Below, piece by piece: positions 11,457-28,523 of a stretch of DNA of 35,431 nt. This DNA comes from an uncultured virus (IMG/VR IMGVR_UViG_3300008111_002316) (lineage: Duplodnaviria; Heunggongvirae; Uroviricota; Caudoviricetes). Made by a program: the position numbers and the translations under genes. The notes under the pieces were generated by a model. The model had not been told where the DNA came from. It saw only the letters and a program-made list of their open reading frames with translations, and searched no databases. The stretch is from IMG/VR virus record IMGVR_UViG_3300008111_002316; one strand, written 5' to 3'. Position 1 is the first letter of the stretch. Every line of letters starts with the position of its first letter.

Positions 11457-11481
11457 AAGTCAACTATTTTAGAGTTGACTT
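11457..11481 (-). terminator. Terminator hairpin after nrdA, duplicated at ~11160-11185
   Basis: AAGTCAACT-ATTTT(T)AG-AGTTGACTT with an A run on the + strand side. Confidence 0.7.
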
Positions 11482-11497
11482 GTTAGAAAAAGTTTAA

Positions 11498-13030
11498 TTA
11501 ATCACCGGCACAAGCTTCACAATATTGGGAATCGAGATTACAGACAACAACATCAGAAGAAGAAAAAGGGTAGTCGTCAGAATCAAATAAAGCATCAAAG
11601 TCAACGTCTGATACAGATTGAGAATTAGGCAGATAGGAAAGAGCATCAAGAGCCTCATCGGAAATGACACGAGACTTATCGTTAGAAGATTGGAGAGTTG
11701 CCAGACGGTAGTAAGTAGTTTTGAGGTCAGAAGCAAGGAAAGTATCAATAAAAGATTCATCAACAGGACAAGTATCCCAAATATTAGCGGAAATAGAATG
11801 GCTAAGACCAGTAGAGTCCATTAAACGTTGCCAAATATTAAGAAGTCGCCATTGAGTATCCCAACCGACATGGGAAGCAATTTGAACGTTGGGGTGAAAA
11901 TGAAAAATTTGAGAACCAAAAGTTTCAGAGGTACGTTCAATAGAACGACTTAAAGGAGGGCTAATTTCAGGAGTAATAGAGAAGCCTTGAGAATCAAAAT
12001 GCTTAGTAAAAGAGGTTGCGGTAGGAGCAACGCAGAAAACACGGTCAAAGTTGTAAAGCTGACCAATATCAGCCGCTTCATGGTAGCCTAAAGCAAGATA
12101 GAAAGCAATTTGTTGGGGAAGATGGAAAGAAGAAACAAACGGAAGAGTACAACGGAGAATATCAGGACGGAAACCAGAAGTCATCTCTTCAATGGACTCT
12201 AAAGCAGAAACGAAATCGGAATAGGAAACATCATGGATAGCTAAAAAAGAAGCTAAACCAATAACACCAAGTCCAATTTGTTTGTCTTCGGCAGGGGAAA
12301 GATATTGACCAGTTTCACCAACACCAGTAAGAGGATGTAAACGAGCTAACCATTCAGCCCCTTGACGGAAAGCAGTGGGAATCTCATGAGGAGAAAGTAA
12401 ACCCAAATTGATATTAGAGATAAGACAGGTAGCCCGACTTTTTAGTAAAATTTCTAAACAAACATTACTATAAAGACGTTCACCATGTTTATCGTATTGC
12501 TTTTTAGCTAACCAAACAGTACCATTGTCAACAGCTTCAGCTAATTTTGCTTTGATAGGATGAGTTTTTAGACCATCATCAACGTACATGGCTAATTTAA
12601 TCCAAGCATTTTCAAATTCGTCAGCATTTAAAAAAGCCAAAGCGTCAGGGTTATCGTAGTCTAGATAAACAGTAACAGCCCCATTTTTAAAAACCCCTCC
12701 TCGACGAAGAGTTTCATTAAGTCGAGAGTAAAGAGACATAAAACTAACAGCACCAGAAGCGACAAGACCTTTATCGTTAGTAGAACCAGAGGGGCGTAAA
12801 GAGTTAAGGTCAATAGCACAGCCTGCGGCATTACGAAGAGCATGAGAAGTAAAAATCCAACTAGCTTCAATGCCATTATCACCTTCCATAGAGTCTTCGA
12901 CATGGAAGACAGTACAACTAACAGGAAGACGACCTTCGCCCCAATCCCGAACACGACCAGTAAGAGCTAATCCATGTGGGATTTCGTTAAAAAGGTCATT
13001 TTTTAAAGCTTGACGTTCGGATTCAATCAT
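11498..13030 (-). CDS. nrdA: Ribonucleotide reductase alpha subunit, short cyanophage class I type
   Basis: GRLPVSCTVF, SNVCLE (N-C-E), QIGLGVIGLA, APTATS, the TYYR tyrosine pair typical of class I, and C-terminal CEAC. Confidence 0.92.
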   Translation of the reverse strand: MIESERQALKNDLFNEIPHGLALTGRVRDWGEGRLPVSCTVFHVEDSMEGDNGIEASWIFTSHALRNAAGCAIDLNSLRPSGSTNDKGLVASGAVSFMSLYSRLNETLRRGGVFKNGAVTVYLDYDNPDALAFLNADEFENAWIKLAMYVDDGLKTHPIKAKLAEAVDNGTVWLAKKQYDKHGERLYSNVCLEILLKSRATCLISNINLGLLSPHEIPTAFRQGAEWLARLHPLTGVGETGQYLSPAEDKQIGLGVIGLASFLAIHDVSYSDFVSALESIEEMTSGFRPDILRCTLPFVSSFHLPQQIAFYLALGYHEAADIGQLYNFDRVFCVAPTATSFTKHFDSQGFSITPEISPPLSRSIERTSETFGSQIFHFHPNVQIASHVGWDTQWRLLNIWQRLMDSTGLSHSISANIWDTCPVDESFIDTFLASDLKTTYYRLATLQSSNDKSRVISDEALDALSYLPNSQSVSDVDFDALFDSDDYPFSSSDVVVCNLDSQYCEACAGD

Positions 13031-13080
13031 TGAAAAATCTCCAAAAAAGTAAAAAGGTTGACAAAAAGAAGACTCAAAAA

Positions 13081-13443
13081 TTATTGAGGTGGTTTATTGA
13101 AAGGGGGAGTCTCTAAACCAAGAGACTGTTTTTGCATCGTCAACAAAAGAATATGCTGAGAGACAGTTTTTTGAAACAGCAAAGTAATTAACTCTTTGAT
13201 GCGTTCACTGCGAGCATTTAAATCTGGGATAGAAAACCGAATATGAGTGGCATTACGGGGCAAAAAATCACAGCTAAAAGCTTTATCGACTTCAAGCATC
13301 ATTCGTGCTAACTCGAATTGGTTAGGCAGGGAAAGATTTTGAGCAATATCTAAACGATTCTCTTCTTCATTGTGAAAAGAGCGGGTGTGAGCAAAGATGG
13401 TTGGCTCGTCTTCAGGATAATTTTCAGGGTTTAAAACAGGCAT
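13081..13443 (-). CDS. Hypothetical protein
   Basis: 120-aa ORF co-oriented with nrdA. Confidence 0.65.
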   Translation of the reverse strand: MPVLNPENYPEDEPTIFAHTRSFHNEEENRLDIAQNLSLPNQFELARMMLEVDKAFSCDFLPRNATHIRFSIPDLNARSERIKELITLLFQKTVSQHILLLTMQKQSLGLETPPFNKPPQ

Positions 13444-13520
13444 AAGCAGAAATTTTCAGGTTCTAAAACAGGCTTGAAGTAAATTTGAACAGAGTTTCGT
13501 AAATAGTATTTATTGTTGTA

Positions 13521-13769
13521 CTACCCTGATAATACTAGCATTCCTTCAATATTAGGACGGTCATTTTCTTCTGATTTTTCGTAAGTCGCTTCTTTGGCTT
13601 TATCAATCCAAGCATTAATTTGATCGTGTCTAATTGCTCCATAATCGACTTCATCATCAACTTCATTTTCAATCTTAATTCCTATAATTGAGAAACAGAA
13701 TAAAAAATTGTATAAATCAGTTTCGTTGACCGATTGTACTAACTCTTTAAGAACTTGTTTAGCGTCCAT
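13521..13769 (-). CDS. Hypothetical protein (start revised to MDAKQ)
   Basis: GGAG RBS before ATG 13769; the upstream codons (KQEMNVNIF) belong to a TnpB-end remnant. Confidence 0.6.
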   Translation of the reverse strand: MDAKQVLKELVQSVNETDLYNFLFCFSIIGIKIENEVDDEVDYGAIRHDQINAWIDKAKEATYEKSEENDRPNIEGMLVLSG

Positions 13770-13779
13770 TGTTATTTCT

Positions 13780-13875
13780 CCGTTATAAAAAATGTTAACA
13801 TTCATTTCTTGCTTCACTGTGGTAAGGACGTCCTAACACCACTCCACAAGCTAACACGAGCTAACTGCCCGCTTT
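13780..13875 (-). mobile_element. IS607/IS605-type TnpB 3' end and right-end remnant
   Basis: GTGTTAGCTTGTGGAGTGGTG...ACCACAGTGAAGCAAGAA...ATAACGG resembles the VLACG...VKQE tail of cyanobacterial TnpB and a GG-terminated IS607 end; no tnpB ORF. Confidence 0.5.
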
Positions 13876-13951
13876 ACCCTAGTTAAAAGGGGTTTTGACC
13901 CGTTATAATTAAGCTTGGTTTTCGCCTAACTAATTTTGTTGGGTTAAACCC

Positions 13952-13980
13952 AGTATAACAGATGGTAGTTATGATGTCAA
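13952..13980 (-). promoter_or_regulatory. Sigma70-like promoter
   Basis: TTGACA-N17-TATACT on the - strand. Confidence 0.75.
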
Positions 13981-14002
13981 GGGGGTTTGAGAAAAAAAAT
14001 TT

Positions 14003-14140
14003 TTAAGAATTGCGAGCTTTTTTACGAAGGGCGAAAACGGATTCAACGGGATTAGAAGTAGTTTTGCGGGGTTGTTTAGGGGAATCATTAGACCGTTTAC
14101 GACTTTCTTGACGACCATCCCCACCAGAAGTTTTTACCAT
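14003..14140 (-). CDS. 45-aa basic protein (not in ORF track)
   Basis: MVKTSGGDGRQESRKRSNDSPKQPRKTTSNPVESVFALRKKARNS, with T-ending codon bias like its neighbours. Confidence 0.5.
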   Translation of the reverse strand: MVKTSGGDGRQESRKRSNDSPKQPRKTTSNPVESVFALRKKARNS

Positions 14141-14205
14141 AAAAAAAATTGGAAACACTACACTAGAAAAGCGAGCGTGACCAATTTTTTTTGCTTGAAC
14201 GAGGA

Positions 14206-14502
14206 TTAATTATCACCCAAAACTTCGTATTGACCATCTATCGACGGCAAAAGACTGTTTTTGGTTTCGGGACTAACTAATAAGTTGGCAGTAACGGTAG
14301 TTTCAACAAAAGAGCCATTATTGGCTGGAAACGTTCTAAGATGCTCAGAAAAATCTAGTTGAAAAGGAGTATTGGGAGGCAATTTTTCTAAAACAAAGTC
14401 GAGTATTTGCCCATAAAGAGAGTGACGAATAGCGGAGTGTTGAGCTTGGTAATAGGTAGAATGGCACTGGTTAGAGACGGATATAGTTTCTAAAATAATC
14501 AT
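14206..14502 (-). CDS. Hypothetical protein
   Basis: 98 aa, AGGA RBS. Confidence 0.6.
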   Translation of the reverse strand: MIILETISVSNQCHSTYYQAQHSAIRHSLYGQILDFVLEKLPPNTPFQLDFSEHLRTFPANNGSFVETTVTANLLVSPETKNSLLPSIDGQYEVLGDN

Positions 14503-14512
14503 GTGTTTTGTC

Positions 14513-14929
14513 CTATTTTATTGCATACTTAAGATTTTCTAGATTAAGATATTCTAGACTGAGAAAATATAAGCAAGACATCTCTCCTTCTACAAATATA
14601 ATTGAAGCTATTGCAATAGTTACAGCAAAAAGATTAGTATTCTTTTTAAGCTGGTCAGGAACATTGACTCTGAAAAACAATATTACTGTAGCTAACAATA
14701 GTTGATTTTTGATAACTTCACGAAAATTCAGTACAGTATTTTCGTTTATTACACCATACGCATAAACTAGCCCATTGGCAATAGTGCGGTTGTAACAATG
14801 TTTAAGCAATGCTGAAAACTGTGGTTTTTGTTTTGCTTCATTGACTAAATCAGCGATAAAATCTTTTGTTGATTTAGGTAAATTATCGCAAACACTTTTG
14901 ATAGCTATTGCACCTCCGTAACTAATCAT
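14513..14929 (-). CDS. Hypothetical protein with hydrophobic segments
   Basis: 138 aa, AAGGAG RBS, upstream TTGACA. Confidence 0.65.
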   Translation of the reverse strand: MISYGGAIAIKSVCDNLPKSTKDFIADLVNEAKQKPQFSALLKHCYNRTIANGLVYAYGVINENTVLNFREVIKNQLLLATVILFFRVNVPDQLKKNTNLFAVTIAIASIIFVEGEMSCLYFLSLEYLNLENLKYAIK

Positions 14930-15004
14930 TTTTTTTGCTCCTTAGACGTTTTGCACTTATTTACATAATATAGCACATTCAAGACAAAATGTCAATAAAT
15001 AAGT

Positions 15005-15724
15005 TCAAATACCGACAGATTGTGTAAGCGAAGCTTTATTTTCTGTCTTCAGGTAGGTAGAGACATTAAAATCATCCTTAAAACGACCCCTAGCTCTATC
15101 AGACTCCTCTATAACATGACACCAGCCCATTTTTTGACATTCTTCTTTAACTTTGCGTCCTCCTCCATAAACAGTGAAAAAAATGTCAGAAGTACCAGCG
15201 TGGCGACAAGCCATATCAAATTCTTCATAGGTAGCGGCAATACCATCGGAATAGCCATGAGTACAGTAAGCATCCCAACCTTTAGGAACGCCTAAAAGAG
15301 CAATATCCTGAAATTCAGTAGGAACATTTACATCAACAAGAATACGAATACCTGCTTCAGCCCAATAACGAGAAAGCCAACGTTTTTTAAAAATTAGTTC
15401 AATAGCGATAGCTTTAGGAGTTTGAAGAGTAATGGTGTAGTTAACTTCACCAACAAGAGTGATTGAAGTATCGATTAATTTAGAAGGATTTTTCCAATGA
15501 CCATTAAAGCGATAATCGTCGGTATAGTGAAAGACAGTACCGGTAAGTGATTTGTTGCGAGCCTTAGCCCCCCAAATATTAATAGGAGTTTCTGGCCATT
15601 TACCCGCCATATTCAAAGGAAGGACAGGGATGCCCCATTCATTGTCAGTGGGAAACATCCAAGTTACAATATTATTACCTATGGGATTTAACAATTCTTT
15701 GATAGCCATGAAAAAAGATTTCAC
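15005..15724 (-). CDS. DUF4417-like protein
   Basis: N.WGIP.L, FHYTDDYRF, KKRWLSRYWAEAGIRI, GVPKG, VYGG; true start uncertain. Confidence 0.7.
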   Translation of the reverse strand: MKSFFMAIKELLNPIGNNIVTWMFPTDNEWGIPVLPLNMAGKWPETPINIWGAKARNKSLTGTVFHYTDDYRFNGHWKNPSKLIDTSITLVGEVNYTITLQTPKAIAIELIFKKRWLSRYWAEAGIRILVDVNVPTEFQDIALLGVPKGWDAYCTHGYSDGIAATYEEFDMACRHAGTSDIFFTVYGGGRKVKEECQKMGWCHVIEESDRARGRFKDDFNVSTYLKTENKASLTQSVGI

Positions 15725-15762
15725 TCAAAGTAAAGATATATCTTAGCATAAGGAAAAAAGAA

Positions 15763-16227
15763 ATGTCAAATAACGAACAACAAATTCCCACATTTGCGGA
15801 ATATCTATTCAAGCCCCAGAGAAGTGCAAAGTTACTATATGGTACATTTGTACTAAGAGATAAAGACCAAAAACAATTATGTGCGGTAGTGGCTACATCT
15901 GGGGCGGCAGGGTATCAAAATTGGACAGATTTTCAAAGGATAGGAAAGGGATTGATTCCGCCCTATGACAAATTTCAAATCAGAACCGATGGGTATCGAT
16001 TAGCAACAAAAGGAATCGAAGGTATGTTTTATCCGATAGAACCTAGTCCTGTCCCTATCTATGGAAGGTCTGAATTAGGGTTGCATTTTGACGCAAACGT
16101 ACCTGGTTCAGCCGGATGTATTGTGATAGAAAACAAAAACAGTTTTTTAAAAACAATAGTCCCTTTAATGTTAAAAGCGAAAAATGCAAAAATACTTAGA
16201 ATCCCGTTAAAAGTCAATTTTAGCTAA
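15763..16227 (+). CDS. L,D-transpeptidase/Tlde1-like (YkuD-fold) peptidoglycan enzyme
   Basis: ATSG, G.IPP and RSELGLHFDANVPGSAGCIV (H...GS.GC catalytic motif). Confidence 0.7.
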   Translation: MSNNEQQIPTFAEYLFKPQRSAKLLYGTFVLRDKDQKQLCAVVATSGAAGYQNWTDFQRIGKGLIPPYDKFQIRTDGYRLATKGIEGMFYPIEPSPVPIYGRSELGLHFDANVPGSAGCIVIENKNSFLKTIVPLMLKAKNAKILRIPLKVNFS

Positions 16228-16674
16228 TGAGAAACTAAAAAGGTTTTGTAATTCATTATCAGAAAAACACCGACCTTTAAGCCAAGTCTCAAAAGTTAAG
16301 GGGGAATACTGAGGATTACGCTCGCTTAATAGATGAGGAAGTTTTGATTTAAAATCTAGAAATAAATCAAATTCTTCATCATTTAAACAAGATTTATTAC
16401 AGGTTAGAGGGTGCAAAAAAAGGAAACCACTGGGTAAAACAAAACGAAACTGAGGCTTAATAAGCAAGGTCATAACTGCTGAAGAACTAATAGCCTTAAT
16501 TACAATTAAAGGGGTGTGACAAATTTCAGCGATATGGATAGCTGAAAGAATGTCTCCCCCTTTAGAATTTACAAAAATCCTATTTACATTTAATTTTTGT
16601 AATGCGATAAAATAGGGAATTGTGTCGTGGTTAATAACGGAAATAGATGGCTTAAAATCAGGTAATAATTCCAT
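16207..16674 (-). CDS. ClpP/crotonase-like protease, divergent
   Basis: IFVNSKGGDILSAIHIA, AISSSA (putative nucleophile) and FLFLHP. Confidence 0.6.
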   Translation of the reverse strand: MELLPDFKPSISVINHDTIPYFIALQKLNVNRIFVNSKGGDILSAIHIAEICHTPLIVIKAISSSAVMTLLIKPQFRFVLPSGFLFLHPLTCNKSCLNDEEFDLFLDFKSKLPHLLSERNPQYSPLTFETWLKGRCFSDNELQNLFSFSLAKIDF

Positions 16675-16684
16675 AGATTATAAA

Positions 16685-17317
16685 ATGTTTAACTTCTTAA
16701 AACGGGTAGTAACAAAAAGATTATTAATTTATGCGGTAAATATAAGCGTGAATATTTTAGTGATTTATTTTCAAATTTGGGGACAAGAGAAAATAGATAC
16801 AAAAGAAAAAGTAATTCTTCAAAAATACGTAAAAACAAAAGATAACATTACAGTTACAAAGGATACAGAAAATTTAGTTTATTTATTAGATGGGTACATA
16901 ACCAAAAGTACAACTTTAAAAATGCCGAAAGGAATAGGATTAAATAAAGAGAACAAAGAAATACTGTTAGAAAATATTATAACATACGTTTCTACAAAGT
17001 ATCCAGAGTCAACAATTTTAAAATCAAATAATTACGAAATATTAGTGGATTTAGGTTATACTAAAAGGCAAATAAATTTTTTAGGGTGGGAAAAAGTGAG
17101 AATGGTTTTATTTGTAGCGGGAAGTAAAGATGATTATAAACTTTATTTAATAGCAACCGTTAAAATAGCTTCAGGAAACCCTTTTTTACCCCCTCCAAGC
17201 AAAGAATTTACCCAATTAGAAGGTGAATCCGCCCACAATGTTAAGGAGTATTTAGAAAGGTTTTTAGCAGATTTAGGAAAAGCAATAAGTGAACCCAAAA
17301 CAGACACTAGAGATTAA
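16685..17317 (+). CDS. Hypothetical protein with N-terminal hydrophobic segment
   Basis: Long ORF; ATG 16685 avoids overlap with the divergent ClpP-like gene. Confidence 0.6.
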   Translation: MFNFLKRVVTKRLLIYAVNISVNILVIYFQIWGQEKIDTKEKVILQKYVKTKDNITVTKDTENLVYLLDGYITKSTTLKMPKGIGLNKENKEILLENIITYVSTKYPESTILKSNNYEILVDLGYTKRQINFLGWEKVRMVLFVAGSKDDYKLYLIATVKIASGNPFLPPPSKEFTQLEGESAHNVKEYLERFLADLGKAISEPKTDTRD

Positions 17318-17711
17318 GCAAAAATTAGGAAAAGAATACTTTATAGCCATAGGTTTTATATTTTGGACTACAACTTTGGTGAGAGTAATAGGGGGTTTAA
17401 CAGACGAGCAATTTCAATATACATTGTTGCTATTATTATCATCTGTGACAAATTTTAGCATACCTATTTTGAAATATTTTATAAGAGGAGAAGCCAAAAA
17501 ACCAACAATTAAGTTTACATTAGAGGGAAGCAGTATAGTGTTAGGAGTGGCGAGAGTTTACGGAATAGCAATAAGTTTAACCAATCTGTTAAGAGTATTA
17601 CCTATTCCCACGTTAAGCGTATTTTCCACATATTTTACTATAATGAGTAGCATACAAGCAATATTTAGTGTTTGGCTGTCATGGATTTTAACTGAAGTTT
17701 TTGAAGATTAG
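17289..17711 (+). CDS. Hypothetical multi-pass (about 4 TM) membrane protein
   Basis: 140 aa with four hydrophobic stretches. Confidence 0.6.
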   Translation: MNPKQTLEIKQKLGKEYFIAIGFIFWTTTLVRVIGGLTDEQFQYTLLLLLSSVTNFSIPILKYFIRGEAKKPTIKFTLEGSSIVLGVARVYGIAISLTNLLRVLPIPTLSVFSTYFTIMSSIQAIFSVWLSWILTEVFED

Positions 17712-17923
17712 AAATTCTTGACAAAAAACTCACCAGCAAGTGTTATCATAAAAAGTTCAAGGTCACGACCAACAGCAACTTTTTTGATTAAGCCTAAATT
17801 TAAAAGAGGTTGGAAATCAGGGTCATAAGGTTTTGTCCAAATTGTTTTATGATTTGCGATATATTTTAAAAGGTTTATATTGATAGTAGTGCTAGTTTTT
17901 TTCAAGACATTCTTTTTATTCAT
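17708..17923 (-). CDS. Hypothetical small protein
   Basis: 71-aa ORF downstream of the polymerase. Confidence 0.5.
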   Translation of the reverse strand: MNKKNVLKKTSTTININLLKYIANHKTIWTKPYDPDFQPLLNLGLIKKVAVGRDLELFMITLAGEFFVKNF

Positions 17924-18054
17924 AAAAAGGAAATGATTTTTTGTAAAGGTGGGTCAAAGATACCAATAGTTAGAGTATCAATGACACCACGAAAAAGAGC
18001 TAAGACAATTTTGATTTTGAGCGAGAACCTTCAGAATTAAGGAAATCTGGCGTA

Positions 18055-18909
18055 CTAATATTTCAAAAGGGAACCTTTAGTCACCTCAAGAATCTCTTGA
18101 ATGGTAGTGACTCGCCCTAAAGAAAGACCTAAAGGTTGAGAAGGAGTGATAGCGTGCTGGTCGGGGGACTTACGAATAGTGAAGTCAATATCGACACCTG
18201 AGAACCAAGCAACAGAAGCTGGTAAATCATAAAGTCCAACAGAATAAGAGATATAAGCCCTAGTCCAAAGGTGAGCTATTTGCAAAGCTAAACAAAAACG
18301 AGCAGAATCTTTAGCAAGAACAATGTACCGGTATTCATCATGAATAGTGATACAAAGTCGAGCATCAATGTCGTATTTGGAACAAAGATAATCAACAGCA
18401 GTAAGACAGATGTGTAAAAAATCAACACCGGAGCTTTGAACACAAAAATTAATTTTGCTAGTTAGATAATCTTTGTGACCAGTAAAACGGGGATGAATGG
18501 CATCACTCATAGTACGTTTTAAGGTAGGAGTGCGAGGGTCACTAGAAGTAGCAATACGTTCAAGTTCGTTAAACATAACGGACTCAGTACCTAAACGCCA
18601 ACGTCCTTCAATTTTTTTACCTTTTGTTTTGGCAAACATATCAGAAGCAAGCTGTTTAGCCTCAGCAGAAGTCAAAGTTTTACGGAACTCCCGCATATAA
18701 TTAATCATCGATTTAAGACCAGCAGAATATCGACGGCTATAGACGACAGTTTTAGCATTATCACGACTGATACCTAATAAAGAAGCAGTCATAGAATGAG
18801 GGTCAGTGCCATCTTCTTTACAGCCAACAAGTGTTTGAAAAGAGGAAGGCGTACCACCAATAATGCCAACATGAGCATCAGCTATAAGGTCAGAAATCCA
18901 TAACTCTTG
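18055..18909 (-). CDS. DNA polymerase gamma-like (family A), exon 2
   Basis: Starts QELWI, completing motif A GADVDS|QELW; motif B RDNAKTVVYSRRYSAG; TSKINFCVQSSGVDFLH; motif C ITIHDEYRY. Confidence 0.93.
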   Translation of the reverse strand, partial: QELWISDLIADAHVGIIGGTPSSFQTLVGCKEDGTDPHSMTASLLGISRDNAKTVVYSRRYSAGLKSMINYMREFRKTLTSAEAKQLASDMFAKTKGKKIEGRWRLGTESVMFNELERIATSSDPRTPTLKRTMSDAIHPRFTGHKDYLTSKINFCVQSSGVDFLHICLTAVDYLCSKYDIDARLCITIHDEYRYIVLAKDSARFCLALQIAHLWTRAYISYSVGLYDLPASVAWFSGVDIDFTIRKSPDQHAITPSQPLGLSLGRVTTIQEILEVTKGSLLKY

Positions 18910-19740
18910 CAAGTTTCTTACGAATAGCCCGCTTCCGACTATTCTCACTGAGTCTCCCCAGTGTTGAGACTATATCATATACGGTTTCCCGTATCTCCCC
19001 GTTTCGAGCTTGCTTAAGCCCTACGATAATAAGCCTAGTTCTTTCAAGATACCCTTATATGCTTTACCCTTCTTGATGTTAGCCACATGGGACTTCTGTA
19101 CTCCATGCTCTTTAGCTAATTGTTCATCTGGTAAGTCAGAATTGAAGATTTTTACAATATCTTCTGTGGTTAACTTGAATCTAGACGTTTCTCTAGTCGT
19201 TGAAGAGTCCTGTACAATCCTTCCCACTGTGGTTCTGTTCATGCCCACCATCTCCGCTATTTTTCGGGTGGTGTAACCCTGTACCCATAGTTCCATTACT
19301 TCTTCCCGGTGAATATCTCTGAAGTCCGAGTGTTGGTTTTTTCTACCTTGGGGGCGTTTGTCGCCCTTTAGCCGATAGTCTTCAGAGATATTGTGGGAAA
19401 TTGTACACCATTCAAGATTTTCAAGATTGTTATTGGTCTTGCAATCGTCTTTGTGGTGGACTACGGGGAGATTGTCTGGGTTGGGTAGATGGGCTAGGGC
19501 TACCATACGGTGAACCATGATGTTTTTAGTTTCCCCTGAGTCATTTGTTAGGACAGTTGCCATATATCCACTTTTATTGACTGCTGGTGACATAAAACGC
19601 TTGACTCGGTGGGAGTAGATACGACCCGTTTTAGTAACGCTGTACTTACTAAATCCGGGGATTGTAACTAGGCTTTCCCGCTGATTGTCCATAACCTTTT
19701 TTCCAGCAATTAGAGGAGTTTAACGACAGCCATTGTGTTA
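18910..19740 (-). ncRNA. Group I intron (831 nt) in polymerase motif A
   Basis: Exon GACAGU pairs with IGS GCUGUC giving the U.G splice pair; P AAUUGCUGGAAA, Q AAUCAGCGG, R UUCAACGACUAG, S AUGAUAUAGUC, P8 AUACGG-GAAA-CCGUAU-like, terminal G at 18910; splicing restores the frame. Confidence 0.9.
19021..19692 (-). CDS. Intron-encoded NUMOD4/HNH homing endonuclease (I-HmuI-like)
   Basis: IPGFSKYSVTKTGRIYS; VHRMVALAHLPNPDNLPVVHHKDDCKTNNNLENLEWCT; C-terminal HTH-like segments. Confidence 0.9.
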   Translation of the reverse strand: MDNQRESLVTIPGFSKYSVTKTGRIYSHRVKRFMSPAVNKSGYMATVLTNDSGETKNIMVHRMVALAHLPNPDNLPVVHHKDDCKTNNNLENLEWCTISHNISEDYRLKGDKRPQGRKNQHSDFRDIHREEVMELWVQGYTTRKIAEMVGMNRTTVGRIVQDSSTTRETSRFKLTTEDIVKIFNSDLPDEQLAKEHGVQKSHVANIKKGKAYKGILKELGLLS

Positions 19741-21564
19741 ACTGTCCACGTCAGCACCAATTTGAACATAGCCTTGTGGCATACGAACAGTGGTTTTAAT
19801 TTCACTTCCAATGCGATTAGCCCGGGGGTTAGCCGCAGTAAGCCAAGTGTTTTCAACAGCACGACCAGTGACAGTACCGGCAGTAATTAATTGAGGACAA
19901 ATAAAACCAGTTCGATTGTCAGAAGACAGAACAACAAATTGATTTTTTACTCGGTCTTGAACAGAAACCCAATAAGCGCAAGAAATAGCAGATTGGAGGG
20001 CTAATTTAGCTTCAGGGAAGTCAGAATCAAGAATACCTCCTTCCATTTCAGACAGATAATCTTTAGACAAAGGCGAACCAACATTGGAATTTTCACCGGC
20101 TTTGTGAGGTAGGGGATAATACAGAGTATCGACATAAGAAAGACCACCATCGTGAGAGATAAAGTTTTCAAGAAGCAAAGGTGTGGTATTGGAAGAAACA
20201 TCAGCACCCTGAGTGGCAAGAAAACCCCACTTACGATCCTTATGATGATAAAGAGGGAAACCCATCCAAGAGAGACGTAAAAGATAGGGGGTACATTGGG
20301 AACGAACAGTAAGGTTCAGTTTATCACCCTTGAATAGCTTACGATACCATTCTGGTTTGTCTTTATGTTTTTTAGCCCGTGAAGAAGGCATAGACCAATC
20401 TAAATGACGAAGCCAAGCATCAGAGTTAGGGTCTAATTCACCGCTAATAAACTTAGAAACTGCATCATCAGCCAACATTTGCAAGTGGGAATTAATTTTT
20501 AAGCGTTCGGACTGAAACAACTCTTCACACCGATTGATATAGCCATACCAACTTTCACGGGTAACAGGAAGGATAGCAGTACCCATTTGCAACATTCCGC
20601 AAAAAGTCACAGCAGAAGGGCATTTTTCCTTAAAGCGGAACCATAAAACTTGATAAAGTTGAAAAGTGACTTTAACATCATTAGCACAGTATTGAGCTAA
20701 TTGCTGAAAACGATTTTTTATTTCCAAAAGAGTACCGGTAACAAAATAATCACGGTCGGATTTGGAAATAGAATAACCTAAATGCAATCTTGAAGTTTCG
20801 GCTAAAGAATTACCGCTAGAAACCTCAAGCCAATCAAAATAAAAAGGAGACTCACCTTGCTCATCAAGAGCTTTATTATGTTTGATGCTAAGAGGACGTT
20901 GTTTTGAACTTAGACCAGCGACGCATTGGTGCATAGACAAAGTATCCCAAAAACGAACGCCTGAGAGTTTGAGGTCATAAGTTTCTAAGGTTCTTGCACG
21001 GTCATAACTGGCATAATGAGCAACAACAAATTTGTCGGATTTACCCAAAGGACAAAGAGTATCAGAACCGTTTGAAACCAGTTTAGGGGAAACCCAAAAA
21101 TACCAAGCGACAGAAGAAACAGCACAAGCCATGACAGGGTAATTAGAGCTAGTAACAGCAACCTCACAGTCATAAACAATGGACATCTCAAGAGGGTAAG
21201 GGACAGAATAGGGTTCCGACCCATCCATAGGGTAACAAGTCCAACCGCACTTGAAAATAAATTCAGAAGGAATAGGTGGAATACTGGTACGAGCTAAAGC
21301 CTCCGCTAAATCTAAATAAGGTTTAGAACGCTGAATAGCAATGTTGTGAAAATGTTTTTCAAGGTCTTCACCTTCAAGAGGGGGTAAATCAAATTCAATA
21401 GTAGGAGGAGTAGGAATGTTCGAGCCACTCAGATTGAAGCTCTGTAACTGTCTTTTGGCTTCGTCACGAGCAGTTTTGCTTGGGTGGTTTTCTAAATCCC
21501 CAAATAATTGCTCCCTTAAGGATTCAGAAATCAAAGGAATCCCTACAGCATTTTTTCTAGACAT
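19741..21564 (-). CDS. DNA polymerase gamma-like (family A), exon 1; spliced product about 892 aa
   Basis: ExoI VYDCEV, ExoII AHYASYDRAR, FWDTLSMH, ExoIII QYCANDV, LPHKAG..NVGSPLSKDY, GTVTGRAVENTWLTA...IGSEIK, GADVDS; all match mitochondrial Pol gamma signatures. Confidence 0.93.
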
Positions 21565-21739
21565 ACACGGTTTTATTTTAAGTGGTTTACATTTTAAGTA
21601 TCGTACAAAGTTAATCTTTTGTCAAGGTTGAAATATTGACAGGGGATGGAATAATCACACAGCAAGGATTGAGCGGGGAGGGGAAAAACAAAAAAACATT
21701 GACAATGGTTGTAGTCGATGTTAAAAACCTAATAATCAT

Positions 21740-22493
21740 ACTTGGTGCTAACTTAGAATTTCTCTGGTTAGAGAATCGCTTTTGTCGATGCGCTCTCAGG
21801 GGAAAAGGAAACTTACGGTTAATTCGTCTCCCTCGTCTTCCTCGTCGCATTAAACGACTACTATCCATCCGTTTTTCAACTCGTTTAAAGGGAAGCTCTA
21901 GGTGAGCCGTCTACAGAGTAAAACCAGAAGATGGGACATTAATTCCAGAAAACAATTTGCTGGGGTCAATTCCTACAGAAATAGGTTGAGTTTTATTTTC
22001 TTGATCATCTTGCTTTGTAGAATCAGGTGTAAGAGGAAATTGAGGATTAAATCGATGAACAAATCACTGTTATCCTAAAACAAAATCCCCTTGACACCGT
22101 GTTTGTAACTCATTGTTAATGAGATCAATCTGTTTGCTTCCCACTGCGATTTTGACCACTCCTCAATGTTTTAGCAGGTCTAGAACGTCCAACATCACTA
22201 TGAATAGAATCTTGTAAAGCATCAATTAATATCTCCGGTGGTAAAGGCCTACGAAGCTCACTTTCCTCCTCAGACAAGGGTGTTAATTGCGGTCTTTGGG
22301 GTGGATTACCACGCCCAAGATTCTCTATTACTTTATCATTGTCAGAAGGTTCTGCTATCAGTTGGACATAGAATTGTCCTAAGTCGTTGAATTTACCGAT
22401 GGCTTTTCCTTCTTTAATCCACCGTCTAGCCCGACTAGGTTTAGTCGGCATTAGAGGTCGATTGTCTGAAGAGATTACAGGTATTCTTTGCAT
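21740..22493 (-). pseudogene. iscB: IscB (RRXRR family) pseudogene, interrupted and truncated
   Basis: PLMP domain at 22338-22493; ~340-bp insertion; then 21740-22000 ENKTQPISVGIDPS (RuvC-I), in-frame TAG at 21911-21913, bridge helix MRRGRRGRRINRK..RQKRFSN..KLAPS; HNH and RuvC-II/III absent. Confidence 0.88.
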
Positions 22494-22737
22494 GGAGATA
22501 ATCCTTAAGAGTGAAGTTAATGTCCTTTACCGCAACACAATCAAGATGTCTTGTCTAACAACGCTTTACCAATAAAGCTTAGAGATAGTCCGAACGAGGG
22601 AAGGATTCGTAAGTCTGGGACAGATTGTGTCTCAATGCGGTAGTCGCTACTTGCGTTGCTTAAATTGGTCTAGGCAAGCCCCGCACCTTTAGGACGGGGT
22701 TAGTAACATAATGAGCAACAACAAATTTGTTGGATTT
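22494..22737 (-). ncRNA. IscB omegaRNA scaffold (~214 nt) with 5' guide
   Basis: Begins GTTACTAACCCCGTCCTAAAGGTGCGGGGCTT (typical end hairpin) and runs to the iscB ATG; the 5' flank 22707-22737 matches 21012-21042. Confidence 0.8.
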
Positions 22738-22813
22738 TATTGAGGAAAAAGGTTAAGAAGCAACGACAGCACTACAATTAATAGTAATGGTTTGAGCGAC
22801 AGGGTGAAGTCGT

Positions 22814-23311
22814 TTAGACACTGCCAGTGAAGTGTTTTCTAGTTCGAGCGTGTAAATAATTTTCTGGACGGTTAGTGACTTTAGCCATTTCTACATTAGC
22901 TTTAAAATCTTTAACTTTCTTAATATAGGAATCAATAGTTTGTCGTTGATGCACGTCACCCAGACCTTTAAATTTTGGTCTATTAAGATACCAAGTTTGA
23001 TATTCGATTAGGACATCAATTAAGGGTGAAAAGACAATGCAATAAGGTTGAATAGAGGTCAAAATGTCGATAGCTAATTGACCTTTGATAATCCATTTTT
23101 TGTTACGATTGGGAGGTTTTGCGATATAAACAGTTCCCCCTAACATTTGACTAACTAGATGCAAATAATTAATATTTTTGTGATGAAATTCGATGGCAGG
23201 GGTAACAAAGTTTTTATGACGCATTAAGCTAATAGAGGCTTTGGCTTCAATCATACCAGCGACATAAGCAGTTTCGAGGGGAGATAGCGTGTGAATCAGA
23301 CTGTTGGACAT
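22814..23311 (-). CDS. Free-standing LAGLIDADG-like homing endonuclease, degenerate motif
   Basis: TAYVAGMIEAKASISL helix, LGGTVY, KWII.G.A...L..I.PY. Confidence 0.6.
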   Translation of the reverse strand: MSNSLIHTLSPLETAYVAGMIEAKASISLMRHKNFVTPAIEFHHKNINYLHLVSQMLGGTVYIAKPPNRNKKWIIKGQLAIDILTSIQPYCIVFSPLIDVLIEYQTWYLNRPKFKGLGDVHQRQTIDSYIKKVKDFKANVEMAKVTNRPENYLHARTRKHFTGSV

Positions 23312-23369
23312 AATAAATTTTGGTACAAATTGGTAGAGGGACTATGTGAAAGAATTAGAAATACCGAAA

Positions 23370-23999
23370 TCATTCAGCTAAAGCATTAATTATGGAGCCA
23401 TAATTATCCTCAATGAAAGACAGCAAATTTAAATCATTATCTAGGGTATCGTCATCCACGTCATTTGGTGAATTTTTATCCCATTCCCAAGCGTAAAGGA
23501 TAGCATTGTGAAGAATAAATTTGGAAAGCAGAGGTAAACGAGAAAGACGAAAAGCTTGAATATAATCAAAGTATTGCTGTTCACGAATAAGCATAAAACT
23601 TAAAAACCAAGCATGATAATTATGGCTTAGGTATTCGAGACAAGATTCAGGAGAATCGAAAAGATGTTCAAAAGGGTATTTTTTTCCTTGTTCTTCAGGG
23701 GGCAAAAATTCATACCAATCTTGAATGGACTCTAGAGGGTAACATTTGTTACGCCAAACAAAATACTCGTCTATTAAAGAAGGAAAAAGGTCTTTAACAG
23801 CTTCAAGAGTGTAAAGGTTTAGAGTCATTTTGTACTTTAAAGGAACTTTAGAAACCTGTAAGGTTTTCAAATAGGTAGAAAATTGTCTATTAGAGATAAG
23901 CGTAACTAAAGAACTAACGGTTTCAGCTTCTGTATGGTTCATAGGGGAGGACTCCAAATTGATTAGTTTAATCATAGCACGGTTGACGGAAATGGTCAA
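23370..23999 (-). CDS. Hypothetical protein
   Basis: ~200-aa ORF; start uncertain. Confidence 0.65.
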   Translation of the reverse strand: MTISVNRAMIKLINLESSPMNHTEAETVSSLVTLISNRQFSTYLKTLQVSKVPLKYKMTLNLYTLEAVKDLFPSLIDEYFVWRNKCYPLESIQDWYEFLPPEEQGKKYPFEHLFDSPESCLEYLSHNYHAWFLSFMLIREQQYFDYIQAFRLSRLPLLSKFILHNAILYAWEWDKNSPNDVDDDTLDNDLNLLSFIEDNYGSIINALAE

Positions 24000-24000
24000 G

Positions 24001-24030
24001 AAAAACCCACCTATATTACGGGTGGGTTTT
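24001..24030. terminator. Terminator after the helicase
   Basis: AAAACCCACC...GGTGGGTTTT. Confidence 0.75.
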
Positions 24031-24035
24031 AAAAA

Positions 24036-25643
24036 TTATTCTTTGATGAAAACTTTTTGTTTAGCTCGTGTGAGAGCTACATAAAGCAATTTTTTCCAAT
24101 TAGGGGCGTTATATACATCAAGACCATCGATAAAGACAACATCAAAACCAGACCCTTGACTTTTATAGACAGTCAAAGCATAATTATATGCCCAATGATA
24201 CGTCAAAAAGCTTAAGTTTTGCCATTCTTTATAGGCAGAATATAGAGCTTTACAATTGGATTGTAGCTTAGAACTGACAGAATAAAGAGCGTCAGGGTAG
24301 GCTCGTTCAAGATAAGTTAAAGCTTCTTGAGCAATTGCCAAAATAGAGGGGTCTGGAACTATAGGAATTACGCCAGAGATTAAACCATCGATACAATAAA
24401 GAATGGCTGTTAAATCCTTCAATTCTTCTTGCAAAGTTATAGAACGATTCATGACCTGAATCATTTTATCGTTATTGCGAGGGTCAATAAAAGAAACCGT
24501 CCATTGTAAATCTCTGTCTAAAGATTTAACAGTAGTATCCCAAACATCAACAGTAAAGTTGGACATTTTGTGAAAATTAAGAGTAAATTCCACTAACTCT
24601 TCAGCGTCAAAAATGTCGATTTCTTTCTCTTTAAAGGGGTCACAAAGTTTGCAAGTTGAAAAATGGGAACTAAGGATGGACACGATTTCACCATTAACAA
24701 AATTGGCAACTTTATTAGCACGGTTAACATATTTAAAGTAGTTATTACGGCGTAAACTGATAAGTTGTTCGCCTTCAGCAAAGGGTTTATTAGCGATACC
24801 TTTTATTGAACGAATAAGTTCGTTATATTGACAAACTTTATCGTTTTTATGAGCTAATATTTTGAACTCAATATTTTCTGAAGCTACAGTATTTTTTAGC
24901 TTTTCATACCATTCATTAGCAGAAATAAGTTCAACATTGTGCAAATCAGGGTCTAAAACCAATTGTTTATCAATAATAGACTTTAACGTTGGCTTTTGGG
25001 AGTCATGGACATTAATGAGTTTCCGAAGATGTTCAGCAATTTTAAGAACACCAGCATCATAACGCATGACTTGTTCTAAAATAGAACTACTACCACAATT
25101 AAAAACATTACTAGCTTTTTGACCGGGTGGGGGTAGTTGACAAGAATCACCAACCCAAAGAATTTTAGCTTTGATTTGGGACGCTTTTTCCCTTAAACGA
25201 CACTCCATATCCTTAGAAAGAATAGAAACTTCATCAACGATAATCAACTGGTATTGGCTAGTGACAAATTTAGAGTTACCGGTATCTAAAGTAGATTTTT
25301 CAGAGTCTCTGGTAACTCGGACACCTTTCATTTTGTACTGCCCACCTTTTTCTTGAATTACAAGTCCTAAAATGGCATGAATAGTATAAACATCTGCGTT
25401 AAATGTCAACTTTTCTTTAAGGACAGAAGCCGCTTTATTGGTAGGACATAAAATAGCAATTTTTAGGTTAGGGTGTGACTGTATCCAATGAGCAATTAAA
25501 GTGGTTTTACCAGTACCAGCCCCCCCAGAAATTAAATGTTCCCCCTTTTTTGAACCCCACCAACGTTCTAAATCTTCGAGAGCTAACCTTTGGTCTTCTG
25601 TTAATTGAAGGGGTGTGGTTTCGATAGCTACAGACGATGACAT
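24036..25643 (-). CDS. SF1B Dda/RecD-like DNA helicase
   Basis: GGAGTGKTT, PTNKAA, TIH, IIVDEVS, VGDSCQLPP, YALTVYKSQGS, LLYVALTRAK. Confidence 0.92.
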   Translation of the reverse strand: MSSSVAIETTPLQLTEDQRLALEDLERWWGSKKGEHLISGGAGTGKTTLIAHWIQSHPNLKIAILCPTNKAASVLKEKLTFNADVYTIHAILGLVIQEKGGQYKMKGVRVTRDSEKSTLDTGNSKFVTSQYQLIIVDEVSILSKDMECRLREKASQIKAKILWVGDSCQLPPPGQKASNVFNCGSSSILEQVMRYDAGVLKIAEHLRKLINVHDSQKPTLKSIIDKQLVLDPDLHNVELISANEWYEKLKNTVASENIEFKILAHKNDKVCQYNELIRSIKGIANKPFAEGEQLISLRRNNYFKYVNRANKVANFVNGEIVSILSSHFSTCKLCDPFKEKEIDIFDAEELVEFTLNFHKMSNFTVDVWDTTVKSLDRDLQWTVSFIDPRNNDKMIQVMNRSITLQEELKDLTAILYCIDGLISGVIPIVPDPSILAIAQEALTYLERAYPDALYSVSSKLQSNCKALYSAYKEWQNLSFLTYHWAYNYALTVYKSQGSGFDVVFIDGLDVYNAPNWKKLLYVALTRAKQKVFIKE

Positions 25644-25693
25644 AGCGACAAACTCCTTGTTGAATGTTAAAAAGCGAATTTTGATTGAAACTC

Positions 25694-25830
25694 GGTTGTG
25701 GTTTCGATATTGACATACTCACCGTCCTTAAAGAGTGGTGATTCTTGACGCTTCACCGACTGACGCTACCGAGGTAGTCTTACTCTGTCTCTGCGCCCGT
25801 TTAGAGTCTCCCAATGCCCTATGGCGACTT
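25694..25830 (-). ncRNA. Orphan IS200/IS605 TnpB omegaRNA/right end with 3' guide
   Basis: GGGCATTGGGAGACTCTAAACG...GTAAGACT...GGTGAAGCGTCAAGAATCACCACTCTTTAAGGACGGTGAGTATGTCAA has the QESP...GE.V tail, subterminal hairpin and TCAA end of IS605-group elements; no tnpB ORF. Confidence 0.75.
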
Positions 25831-25841
25831 TCTTGTTTGGA

Positions 25842-26327
25842 TTATACCCAATCTTTTTCGTTCCATATTTGTTTGTCAATAAAATCTGAGATAGACTTTA
25901 CTATTTCGTCTGTTTTGTCAAGAATAAAATCAATCTCATCTTGCTTGTCGGAAATTTCAGATTCATCCCAAACAAGTGCCTCATCATAGCTTAATCCTAT
26001 ATATCTATATATTTCTTTTATTTCTCCGGTTCTTAGATCAAATATTCTACTACTTACTTTAACTACTGGTAAATCATCAAAATCTCGGTAATAGCACATA
26101 ACCTTAATATGCGCTATGGTCTGACTATCTAAAAGAACCTTAGCATTACCCATTAGGTAAATTGTAGTCGCTGATGTTATTTTCCATTCTGACCAAAGAA
26201 GATATTTGAATAACCAATTATCCCAAAAAGACCATGTATTATACTCTTTGTAGCAAAAAGCCGCAATCTTTTTGAGTATATCTATTCTTCGTGGCTTATT
26301 AAAAAACTTTTCTGTTGTTGTGTTCAT
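25842..26327 (-). CDS. Hypothetical protein, divergent member of tandem family
   Basis: KI..FC...Y..W N-terminal motif and I.DFI..QI C-terminus. Confidence 0.7.
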   Translation of the reverse strand: MNTTTEKFFNKPRRIDILKKIAAFCYKEYNTWSFWDNWLFKYLLWSEWKITSATTIYLMGNAKVLLDSQTIAHIKVMCYYRDFDDLPVVKVSSRIFDLRTGEIKEIYRYIGLSYDEALVWDESEISDKQDEIDFILDKTDEIVKSISDFIDKQIWNEKDWV

Positions 26328-26749
26328 AGCGTCACCTCGGTTTGTATTTCAGTTTCGATAAATGAAAGGATATTAATCAAGATTTGTGTTCCTTTTTCAC
26401 ACCATAAGTTTAGTTCTTTATGTTTAGCAGTCCCACTTTTCTTGAACAAGATTTTACTGTTTTTTCTATCATTTATCCATATAAGAAAACTTCCTTCCCA
26501 ATCTAGATTAGAGATAGTAGACCGACCTTCTATATAATTTCTAAAATCACTAGGTGAACCGTTACTACTATAAGAGTTGTTGCTATTGACCCTTATATCT
26601 ATTTGTATTCCATTTATAGAATTAAGAATAGAGCGATACCCGTAAATGATGTTTTCAGTTCTACTTAAAGACGTAAATGACCACTTTAGCTCTGGGTAAG
26701 TTTTTTGGCAGAAATTAAATATTTTTTGGGTTGTTTCTGTAGTGTTCAT
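26324..26749 (-). CDS. Hypothetical protein, tandem paralog
   Basis: QKIFNFCQKTYPELKW...FIETEIQTEVTL; ATGA overlap. Confidence 0.75.
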   Translation of the reverse strand: MNTTETTQKIFNFCQKTYPELKWSFTSLSRTENIIYGYRSILNSINGIQIDIRVNSNNSYSSNGSPSDFRNYIEGRSTISNLDWEGSFLIWINDRKNSKILFKKSGTAKHKELNLWCEKGTQILINILSFIETEIQTEVTL

Positions 26750-27126
26750 AATGTCATCTCGGTTTGTATTTGAGTTTCGATAAACTCAAAAATACTTGAC
26801 AGCATATCTTTGGGTTTTATAAATAAATCTGTTGACGTATCAAAATCTTTTTTTGATTTAAAAGAGAATTGAGATTCTTTTCTATCTAGCCAAATTTTGA
26901 AAGAACCAGACCATCGCTCTGAACTAGAGATAAACGTGCTTACTTCTCCTAACACAACAGAACTTCTTAATAAAGTACCAATAGTCTCTATACTGACATC
27001 AATCTCTGTTATTTTACCCCAAATATGAAAAGTTGAATTTGTGTAATTTGTTTGTTCCCAATTTATTTCTGGGTAACGGTCTTTACAGAAATCTAATATT
27101 TTTTGGGATGTTTGCCATGTGTCCAT
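26746..27126 (-). CDS. Hypothetical protein, tandem paralog
   Basis: QKILDFCKDRYPEINW...FIETQIQTEMTL; AGGAG RBS. Confidence 0.75.
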   Translation of the reverse strand: MDTWQTSQKILDFCKDRYPEINWEQTNYTNSTFHIWGKITEIDVSIETIGTLLRSSVVLGEVSTFISSSERWSGSFKIWLDRKESQFSFKSKKDFDTSTDLFIKPKDMLSSIFEFIETQIQTEMTL

Positions 27127-27184
27127 TTGTTACTCCTATTTACTCTTGGATTTCACCAGACCAGATTGGTTCGTAAATTAATTA

Positions 27185-27274
27185 TATATTGGTTTGAGTA
27201 AAATGTCAAGAGGCATAATATCTTGGTACATAGTTTTAGGGCTGAGGGGGATAGTTAAAGGCGAAATATTAGTG
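27185..27274. repeat. 90-bp direct repeat, copy 1 (contains a - strand TTGACA)
   Basis: Near-identical to 32148-32237. Confidence 0.85.
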
Positions 27275-27554
27275 AAACTCAGTTTAGGAAACGAATGAAC
27301 GCAGATAGAATTACACTAAGACAGACTACAGACACAGCAATTCCAGAATCAAAATTTTCAGGGGTTGAGAAAAATCTTTTAGACTTTAACCCTAGTATAA
27401 AACTACCGTAAATGTTAATGAATGTTAACAAATGCGGGTCTAAGTCAATTAGGTAGTGTCATTCCAGTCAAAAGCATTTTCCACTACATTTAAATCCTTA
27501 TCGTACTCACGATTAAAGGCGTAATCGTCGTAGGGATGCCACTGAGCCAGTTCT

Positions 27555-27746
27555 TTAAGGCTTTCGTCTAAAACTATCGATTGTATCTAGAAAAGAGCAT
27601 GAGTATTTTTTCCAAAATCCAAAGTTTTGATCTCTCATAAAACTTAATGCTTGTTTAAAATCTTTTTCTTTAGTTTCATGCTTCGAGATAAATTCATTGT
27701 TCCAAAAAAACTGAATTGTCATGATTTCTCCTGTTGTTTTGTCCAT
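27555..27746 (-). CDS. Hypothetical small protein
   Basis: AGGAG RBS suggests the start is the second Met (MTIQFF). Confidence 0.5.
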   Translation of the reverse strand: MDKTTGEIMTIQFFWNNEFISKHETKEKDFKQALSFMRDQNFGFWKKYSCSFLDTIDSFRRKP

Positions 27747-28519: not shown

Positions 28520-28523
28520 ACGA

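Follow-up and report, generated by a model that had tools for sequence, protein, structure and literature searches.

Transposons of the IS200/IS605 group carry OMEGA systems (short for obligate mobile element-guided activity), in which either IsrB or IscB is paired with a HEARO-type guide RNA (omegaRNA) that bears its guide on the 5' side, or TnpB is paired with an omegaRNA from the transposon right end that bears its guide on the 3' side. In phage mini-CRISPR arrays the nuclease is supplied in trans, and TldR proteins are TnpB-derived RNA-guided repressors. In phages, intronless homing and marker exclusion are attributed to free-standing T4 endonucleases (SegF, SegB and Mob) in a review (PMC13565253), where the table of homing types places OMEGA only under homing based on transposon presence or absence. 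Here we analyse a 35,431-nt stretch of DNA from an uncultured tailed virus (IMG/VR record IMGVR_UViG_3300008111_002316; the whole stretch is hereafter called the window), which holds three OMEGA scaffolds, r1 to r3, on its - strand. Two of these carry, at the position of the guide, short copies of the adjacent genes for a DNA polymerase (pol) and a helicase.

The scaffolds share with IS200/IS605 OMEGA systems their homology to omegaRNAs found beside intact RRXRR or TnpB genes, a guide position that corresponds to the flank of a transposon end, and target-adjacent motifs (TAMs) of the ATGA and TBAC types. They differ from those systems in that the copies in the window have neither an intact nuclease nor a left end, and in that the guide flanks are short copies of a downstream gene rather than local native DNA. 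As in mini-CRISPR arrays and TldR systems, a guide RNA derived from a mobile element would be aimed at a specific gene; unlike mini-CRISPR arrays, the window has no repeat-spacer array and no adaptation machinery, and unlike TldR systems, no nuclease-dead partner protein is encoded near its scaffolds. An arrangement of gene-aimed stubs such as this one was not found in the full-text literature that we searched.

The guide-side stub of r2 (22708-22737, -) is a 26-31 nt copy of pol that abuts the 5' edge of the scaffold exactly. Positions 22707-22737 matched pol positions 21012-21042 on the same strand at 30/31 positions (24 exact; blastn E = 1.5e-7), and the copied site (21012-21042, -; TAM position 21009-21012), which encodes the ExoII-like motif KFVVAHY[A]SYD, lies approximately 1.7 kb downstream of the stub. 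The guide of r3 is a 16-nt sequence, TATCGAAACCACAACC (25694-25709, -), situated between the end of the scaffold and the native 5' untranslated region (UTR) of the helicase gene. Read as 25709-25694, it matched helicase positions 25626-25611 at 15 of 16 nt, the initial 13 being contiguous, and we put the chance that 15/16 positions would match somewhere in the window, whichever the strand, at about 8e-4. This second target, codons 6-11 of the helicase gene together with the TAM position (25611-25630, -), is 83 nt downstream of the r3 guide. The native helicase leader begins at 25693: its GAGTTTCAATC start is common to contigs L161 and L162, and homology to the complete, 96.8-kb relative G412 extends to 25692. 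A longer similarity to the helicase (TTCAAT...) was rejected, the stretch concerned being the native 5' UTR that L161 and L162 have in common. According to the initial annotation, two guides have their matches on the sense strand of the replication gene that comes next, and both matches were borne out; guide-position copies of adjacent replication genes are real and unusual.

We assessed how frequently OMEGA ends show such a second local match. In a genome scan for the r3 family, which returned at least 120 matches, 88 loci were examined among the matches listed, and all family counts given below refer to these. With a 12-nt seed, none of 66 r3-family loci had a second guide match within 1.8 kb, and with an 11-nt seed a single locus of the 66 did. 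In five whole phage contigs, a second match was found at 0/5 HEARO ends and 0/2 r3-type ends, and it was likewise found at none of three further viral copies (the true right ends among 80 loci from a 14-mer scan of viral contigs). A loose regular expression for TnpB right ends, applied to whole contigs, gave 40 sites that were mostly false, and only curated ends were counted; four of these 40 sites had 12-nt second matches, at least one of them inside a methyltransferase gene. The expectation that orphan guides elsewhere would also hit core genes was not borne out by these other copies, which showed a local second match in 0/66, 0/7 and 0/3 cases. The window derives from a Microcystis siphophage resembling Mic1 (MN013189.1; 93.3% identity over 74% of the length of 13000-26500), and its closest record, G001, is 99.7-100% identical across window positions 1-24149. 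Compared with Mic1, the window has five extra segments (13447-13974, 14503-14954, 19025-19706, 21737-22757 and 25659-32217), with r1, r2 and r3 falling in the first, fourth and fifth, respectively. None of these three scaffold-bearing insertions is present in Mic1 or in G412, also Mic1-like, and the junction between stub and HEARO scaffold recurs solely in G001 and in metagenome contig L209, which speaks against the proposal of an architecture repeated across the phage group.

Both self targets lack the TAM expected of their element. For the IsrB family, the TAM was inferred to be ATGA, which occurs right after the element and after the flank that matches the guide; this is based on two occupied/empty site pairs, whose register is uncertain by up to 3 nt, and on three right junctions. 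PMC11237433 reports that a host IsrB with its 207-bp upstream RNA jumped into Mic1 gp49 at ATGA in the laboratory, and quotes NTGA as the IsrB TAM, in agreement with ours. At pol, the TAM position reads GCCA in the window, Mic1, L207 and L208, and ATGA, in register, in G412 and L205, such that the alleles differ by a whole codon (ATG versus GCC). For the r3 family, 15 independent left-end junctions gave TGAC (11), TCAC (3) and TTAC (1). The corresponding position in the helicase gene reads TAGC in the window and L161 and TAAC in Mic1 and G412, neither of which is among the 15 observed TAMs. A systematic TAM mismatch at self targets, put forward in the initial annotation as a check, was accordingly what we observed.

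Given the above, we consider it most probable (roughly 0.6) that the three scaffolds are relics of host-derived IS200/IS605 (OMEGA) transposons that were once at, or targeted, the pol and helicase sites, and that are now decaying and largely inert. The elements (one IsrB with its HEARO RNA and two TnpB omegaRNA ends) were probably acquired from cyanobacteria, and are probably decaying at module junctions. In their present state, the scaffolds are most probably inactive or no more than transcribed, and do not form an organised phage guide set. Because an OMEGA guide is set only by the flank of the transposon end, the stubs imply past contact with the pol and helicase sites, and we infer that, in a related phage whose allele bore the TAM, the ends once lay directly against pol and helicase sequences. 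Each stub match stops exactly at the scaffold edge, which supports true target sites, and the stubs hint at past RNA-guided attacks on rival phages. Decay is supported by an isrB gene in two fragments, a HEARO RNA with disrupted pairing, the truncation of r1 and the absence of a left end from r3. What is unusual is that the guide positions copy adjacent replication genes for which TAM-bearing alleles circulate.

The relics may be fossils of an RNA-guided form of intronless homing. In the most coherent such history, a host element would insert at an ATGA (pol) or TBAC (helicase) site, element-free alleles would be cut in an RNA-guided manner, recombination would place the element, still with its former guide, just upstream of a gene copy that is intact and lacks the TAM, and the nuclease gene would later decay. 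The resemblance to intronless homing, as reviewed in PMC13565253, would lie in a selfish nuclease module beside a conserved gene that targets the copy in relatives, in the few target substitutions that separate self from non-self, and in the decay of the module after its spread. It differs in that an RNA guide would provide recognition and the TAM would tell targets apart, and in that the nuclease has here already been lost. A model of duplication followed by deletion would require an unlikely coincidence of breakpoints.

Evidence for the nature of r2 (22494-22707, -), a HEARO-type omegaRNA scaffold of an IsrB element, came from a covariance-model search, homologous copies and covariation. With cmscan, the Rfam HEARO model (RF02033) aligned to 22516-22707(-) over its full length (1-211) with 23.1 bits (E = 0.25); this is below the gathering score of 83, and Rfam at gathering gave zero matches in the window. 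The model is weak for the r2 clade, because copies adjoining intact 382-aa RRXRR genes in related phage contigs scored just 25-42 bits and two of the six related-phage loci searched were missed altogether. Identity of r2 to thirteen other copies, found in phage contigs and in Ma-LMM01, is 76-90%, with homology that begins precisely at 22707/8, and 19 of 59 consensus pairs show compensatory changes across 11 copies. The r2 copy breaks 5 of these 59 pairs; nine close copies break 0-2 and the distant L012 breaks 12. Directly 3' of the scaffold on the same strand, RRXRR fragments begin at 22493: one open reading frame (ORF; 22125-22493) matched positions 1-48 of the 174-position Pfam profile (E = 1.1e-10) and a second (21611-21868) matched positions 90-140 (E = 1.1e-6). 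Based on Pfam RRXRR and on blastn and tblastn matches to Ma-LMM01 gp171, these belong to a broken isrB gene (21737-22493, -), of which codons 1 to ~52 (22339-22493, -) and ~68-152 (21744-21997, -) are split by a foreign insert of 340 bp (21998-22338, -), and the 3' 230 codons are missing. An autonomous IsrB/IscB element would have an intact ORF of ~380 aa and a right end at an NTGA TAM, neither of which r2 has. Full-length relatives of the gene have RRXRR only, with no HNH match, and the published host homologue is called IsrB-like in PMC11237433; the OMEGA assignment of r2 in the initial annotation holds, and its IscB label should read IsrB-like.

The 340-bp piece within isrB is homologous to a unit with a 71-aa ORF (L162:1166-1500), which in G412 lies between the methyltransferase and helicase genes and terminates there in a right-end hairpin of the TnpB type (…CTCGCTTTTAGCGATGGGAGCGTCAA); the piece looks like a small mobile unit of composite make-up. 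That TnpA inserted the r2 fragment is not supported: IsrB homology stops at about 21748, with no transposon right end before native DNA resumes. The left junction of the r2 insert shows microhomology (AAAAT versus TAAAT). Such microhomology, the missing right end and the abundance of recombined OMEGA fragments in these phages are what would be expected if the stubs were neutral scars of illegitimate recombination or patch repair at sites that were never inserted into or targeted. We regard this as very improbable, as both stubs end exactly at the boundary between guide and scaffold and on the guide side, one of them is exactly 16 nt long, the pol ATGA is in register in another allele (a chance of about 1 in 256 per allele), and none of the r3-family loci surveyed shows such a match.

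The r3 scaffold (25710-25828, -) is a TnpB omegaRNA of a mini-element (GTCGCC) type that ends in ...GGTGAGTATGTCAA. It shares homology with the 3' end of intact TnpB ORFs of 391-405 aa and with their right end, is 79-83% identical to L027, L031, L032 and L034, and ends in a hairpin followed by GTCAA. A 17-mer from r3 matched eight viral loci. In four of them (two being the same element) the match is at the 3' end of a TnpB frame of 391-405 aa; the others comprised the orphan L027, one partial locus and two unrelated loci. Plain blastn of r3 and r1 against the phage collection returned nothing useful, and IS605-orfB-type Rfam families were not found in the window even at E-values up to 10. The r3 family is large and cyanobacterial, mostly from Nostocales and Oscillatoriales, and the canonical end (...AAGAATC-hairpin-GGTGAGTATGTCAA) was present in 68 of the 88 loci. 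Among the 46 loci with at least 1,300 nt upstream, 18 had an intact frame, 5 a partial frame and 23 a frame of less than 150 aa, so that orphan scaffolds (23/46) are common debris. These orphans are of two kinds, namely decayed tnpB genes and mini-elements in which a left-end hairpin and a -10 box precede a scaffold starting with GTCGCC, the latter presumably being PATE/MITE-like non-autonomous IS200/IS605 derivatives.

Like such mini-elements, r3 has the GTCGCC start and a -10 box; unlike them, it has a gene-matching 16-nt guide, and no left-end hairpin was detected for it in the window with up to 3 mismatches allowed. The box, TATAAT, was read from the sequence 12 nt upstream of the scaffold (25841-25846, -), where mini-elements have TAGAAT, TACAAT or TAAAAT; it was missed by the promoter scan because no -35 element is present. 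Structurally, r3 keeps 26 of 27 consensus pairs, breaking one, and 11 of the 27 covary across the family. Guide-only mini-elements of the IS605 family were observed at cyanobacterial and viral loci (L027, L084, L085, L097, L115 and L112). Their omegaRNA starts GTCGCC...GGGAGAC in place of the GTCGGG...GCCACGAC of full elements, a compensated swap of a stem that codes for protein in the latter, and this suggests a maintained non-autonomous omegaRNA lineage.

The third scaffold, r1 (13779-13875, -), is a truncated TnpB omegaRNA remnant within the 528-bp insertion at 13447-13974. Its core (13806-13872, -) comprises an AGTT-looped hairpin, GTGTTAGCTTGTGGAGT, another hairpin and ACAGTGAAGCA, and can be aligned to the 3' end of TnpB frames of 392-393 aa in Ma-LMM01 and in all five candidate host genomes searched, whose identity as Microcystis is presumed. 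Identity to those omegaRNA regions was 74-76% over 69 nt, with both hairpins compensated. The homology was first spotted by eye and then confirmed by pattern and genome searches; when r1 and r3 were compared with six phage TnpB loci by blastn-short, a single 18-nt match resulted, for r1 only. Part of the 3' scaffold found in the Ma-LMM01 and candidate-host copies is missing from r1, which is thus not a complete scaffold. Downstream of the core are a palindrome, AATGTTAACATT (13791-13802, -), a T-run and a right-end-like TATAACGGA; the distant relative L035 keeps the palindrome and T-run but differs in the loop. Upstream is a sigma-70-like promoter, TTGACA-17-TATACT (13952-13980, -; 11/12 matches, with TG before the -10), which is among the two best such sites in 13000-26500 and is conserved in L035, L036 and L037. 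No guide match was found for r1. With regard to the claim that each scaffold is located upstream of a replication gene, the layout applies to r2 with pol and r3 with the helicase, but r1 is parted from nrdA (11498-13030, -) by two small ORFs and its guide is unmatched. All three are confirmed as OMEGA scaffolds on the - strand.

We questioned whether the scaffolds might instead serve their carrier as cis-acting RNA. RNA evidence consisted of assembled contigs of RNA libraries (freshwater metatranscriptomes). The HEARO/IsrB 5' sequence (22320-22751) had a word depth of ~400-19000 in runs X1, X3, X5 and X12, compared with tens for neighbouring phage genes; in all four of these sets HEARO-family sequence reaches depths in the thousands, derived mostly from non-identical (host) copies. 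Run X1 carries the insertion-free allele. Contigs of low depth that match this phage exactly come from run X5; one of them is 213 nt long (25561-25773) and may reflect DNA carry-over. A contig bridging the pol stub and the HEARO junction was not seen among the RNA-library contigs, where uncovered parts prove nothing. A co-opted role as promoter, leader or terminator modules of phage genes, with no nuclease involved, seems improbable to us, even if individual features would suit it: r1 might, though this is unlikely, provide a promoter-driven structured leader or small RNA, its hairpin and T-run preceding a small ORF, and r3 might, with as little likelihood, equip the helicase with a structured 5' leader and a -10 box. 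The near-consensus r1 promoter, the palindrome and T-run conserved in L035 despite a changed loop, the TATAAT before r3 and the exact RNA-library contig running from r3 into the helicase gene are all in keeping with that role. Against this, r1 and r3 fold no better than shuffled sequences (z = +0.20 and -0.60, a measure that tells nothing about scaffolds acting in trans), the genes concerned are also expressed by relatives that lack the inserts, and the guide-position stubs are left unexplained.

Whether a nuclease could be supplied in trans is central to the proposal, made in the initial annotation, of a phage set of mini-guides that hijacks host nucleases. As that annotation had noted, no intact nuclease is encoded in the window: tblastn with seven TnpBs and one IsrB as queries gave no matches other than the two IsrB fragments. 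An intact TnpB is encoded elsewhere in the Mic1 genome, with a different type of scaffold. In G412, a tnpB related to the r3 family (61925-63177; 59% amino acid identity to L031) is frameshifted near codon 66 and has an omegaRNA with an internal insert, just upstream of the methyltransferase-helicase block. Among 401 genomes of one cyanobacterial order, 45 had HEARO matches, and six genomes (4.3-4.9 Mb) carry copies 88-91% identical to r2. Downstream of these six copies were four frames of 53-277 aa and one open frame of 376 aa (L170), with one locus too short to score, and three more distant host copies (77-83%) were followed by frames of 168, 371 and 500 aa. Intact IsrB is present in Ma-LMM01-type phages. 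The r3 17-mer, with up to 2 mismatches allowed, was absent from all five candidate host genomes.

These sources would be required if r2 and r3 were working, nuclease-free guide modules that borrow IsrB or TnpB against competitors' TAM-bearing pol and helicase alleles, by RNA-guided marker exclusion or intronless homing, which we consider possible but doubtful. The modules would then have guides fixed at conserved sequences of the helicase 5' end and the pol exonuclease motif instead of at their own empty site, itself a tentative proposition. An IsrB or TnpB of the host or a co-infecting phage might conceivably nick or cut the TAM-bearing alleles of rival Mic1-like phages. The carrier, on the same doubtful footing, could be shielded by TAM substitutions (ATG to GCC in pol and TAAC to TAGC in the helicase). 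The near-perfect guide matches, the absence of self TAMs alongside ATGA in the G412 and L205 pol alleles, and the well-kept r3 structure, from a mini-element lineage with a compensated stem swap, are consistent with such modules, as are the strong r1 promoter, the open IsrB frames of candidate hosts and Ma-LMM01-type phages, and the abundance of HEARO-family RNA, mostly from other copies, in the metatranscriptomes. Yet the layout occurs in one lineage only (the window, G001 and L209), other phage-borne orphans have no local guide match, the isrB pseudogene implies that r2 started as an autonomous element, and its HEARO copy has broken pairs. Moreover, the r3 family was not found in the candidate hosts, r1 is truncated and matches nothing, and IsrB is a nickase according to literature quoted in PMC11237433. 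The scaffolds, the matches, the missing TAMs, the ATGA of a related pol allele and the closely similar HEARO copies of candidate hosts are what survives of the mini-guide proposal; its restriction to one lineage, the pseudogenised r2 and the failure to find the r3 family in 5/5 candidate hosts tell against the remainder. Because the nuclease has been lost and the layout is confined to one lineage, we rate decaying relics as most likely and a working system with a borrowed nuclease well below that.

Several observations weigh against the relic interpretation. The inferred TAM is missing from both self targets, and it is at this very position that relatives differ, as would be expected of selection under an active system. 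The r3 scaffold is almost intact, has a TATAAT like that of mini-elements, and is followed by a stub of the length of a TnpB guide; the 213-nt contig from X5, with the same caveat of DNA carry-over, joins r3, the stub and the helicase start. No transposon right end borders the r2 fragment. The nuclease search covered the window, and an intact cognate nuclease may be encoded elsewhere in the phage genome; candidate hosts, too, carry at least one open IsrB frame beside closely similar scaffolds.

With regard to the surrounding genes, pol is gamma-like and is encoded in two parts (19738-21564 and 18055-18948, -). An ORF for an HNH/NUMOD4/HTH homing endonuclease (19021-19692) separates the two halves. 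The interval between them (18949-19737) is just 412 bp in Mic1 and ~138 bp in G412, and a weak group I intron signal was detected at 18946-19041 (19 bits, E = 0.42); the interval could be an intron that either carries or lacks its endonuclease gene. The helicase is of the UvrD type (24036-25643, -), and between it and an m5C methyltransferase gene (32232-33236, -) is a 6.56-kb island (25659-32217, -) that is absent from Mic1, has r3 at its downstream edge and contains chiefly unknown ORFs, one of them head-decoration-like. A 138-aa ORF (phrog_23556; 14513-14929) is located in a 452-bp insertion absent from Mic1, and its DNA is 89-91% identical to that of MaMV-DC-type Microcystis myophages, a similarity that points to probable recent exchange between unrelated phages. 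Many internal repeats (200-350 bp, 80-89% identity) were observed at ~5000-8950 of the window as off-diagonal matches against G001 and G412.

Related scars were observed in other phages. In Mic1 (L001), a 15-16-nt HEARO start (GTCACTAACCCCGCC) is located on the minus strand at ~10360-10375, directly after the stop codon of Mic1_87, and in G412 the same start (GTCACTAACCCCGCC) follows the methyltransferase stop codon at 65613, with a TnpB-type right end also present before the helicase gene. OMEGA ends mark gene-module junctions in Mic1-like phages. In Ma-LMM01-like phages, 4-7 truncated HEARO 5' ends (GTCACTAACCC...) are arrayed upstream of full IsrB elements (L006:915-1340, L009:1130-1340, L011:1020-1290 and, in Ma-LMM01 itself (L002), upstream of gp171). 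Each arrayed end precedes a short unique stretch, in a layout that resembles repeats and spacers.

Even as a fossil, the locus offers concrete targets for bench work, namely the pol ExoII site with ATGA or GCCA and codons 6-11 of the helicase gene. OMEGA guides are thought to be fixed to the insertion site of their own transposon. If the guides described here did act on nearby essential genes that lack the TAM in the carrier and bear it in a relative, a transposon nuclease would have been redirected to competition between genomes, which would bridge transposon homing, free-standing homing endonucleases and CRISPR-like targeting, and would represent a natural step from transposon homing to trans-acting, gene-targeting guides. 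The locus also illustrates how IS200/IS605 elements from the host mould the junctions between modules in Microcystis phages.

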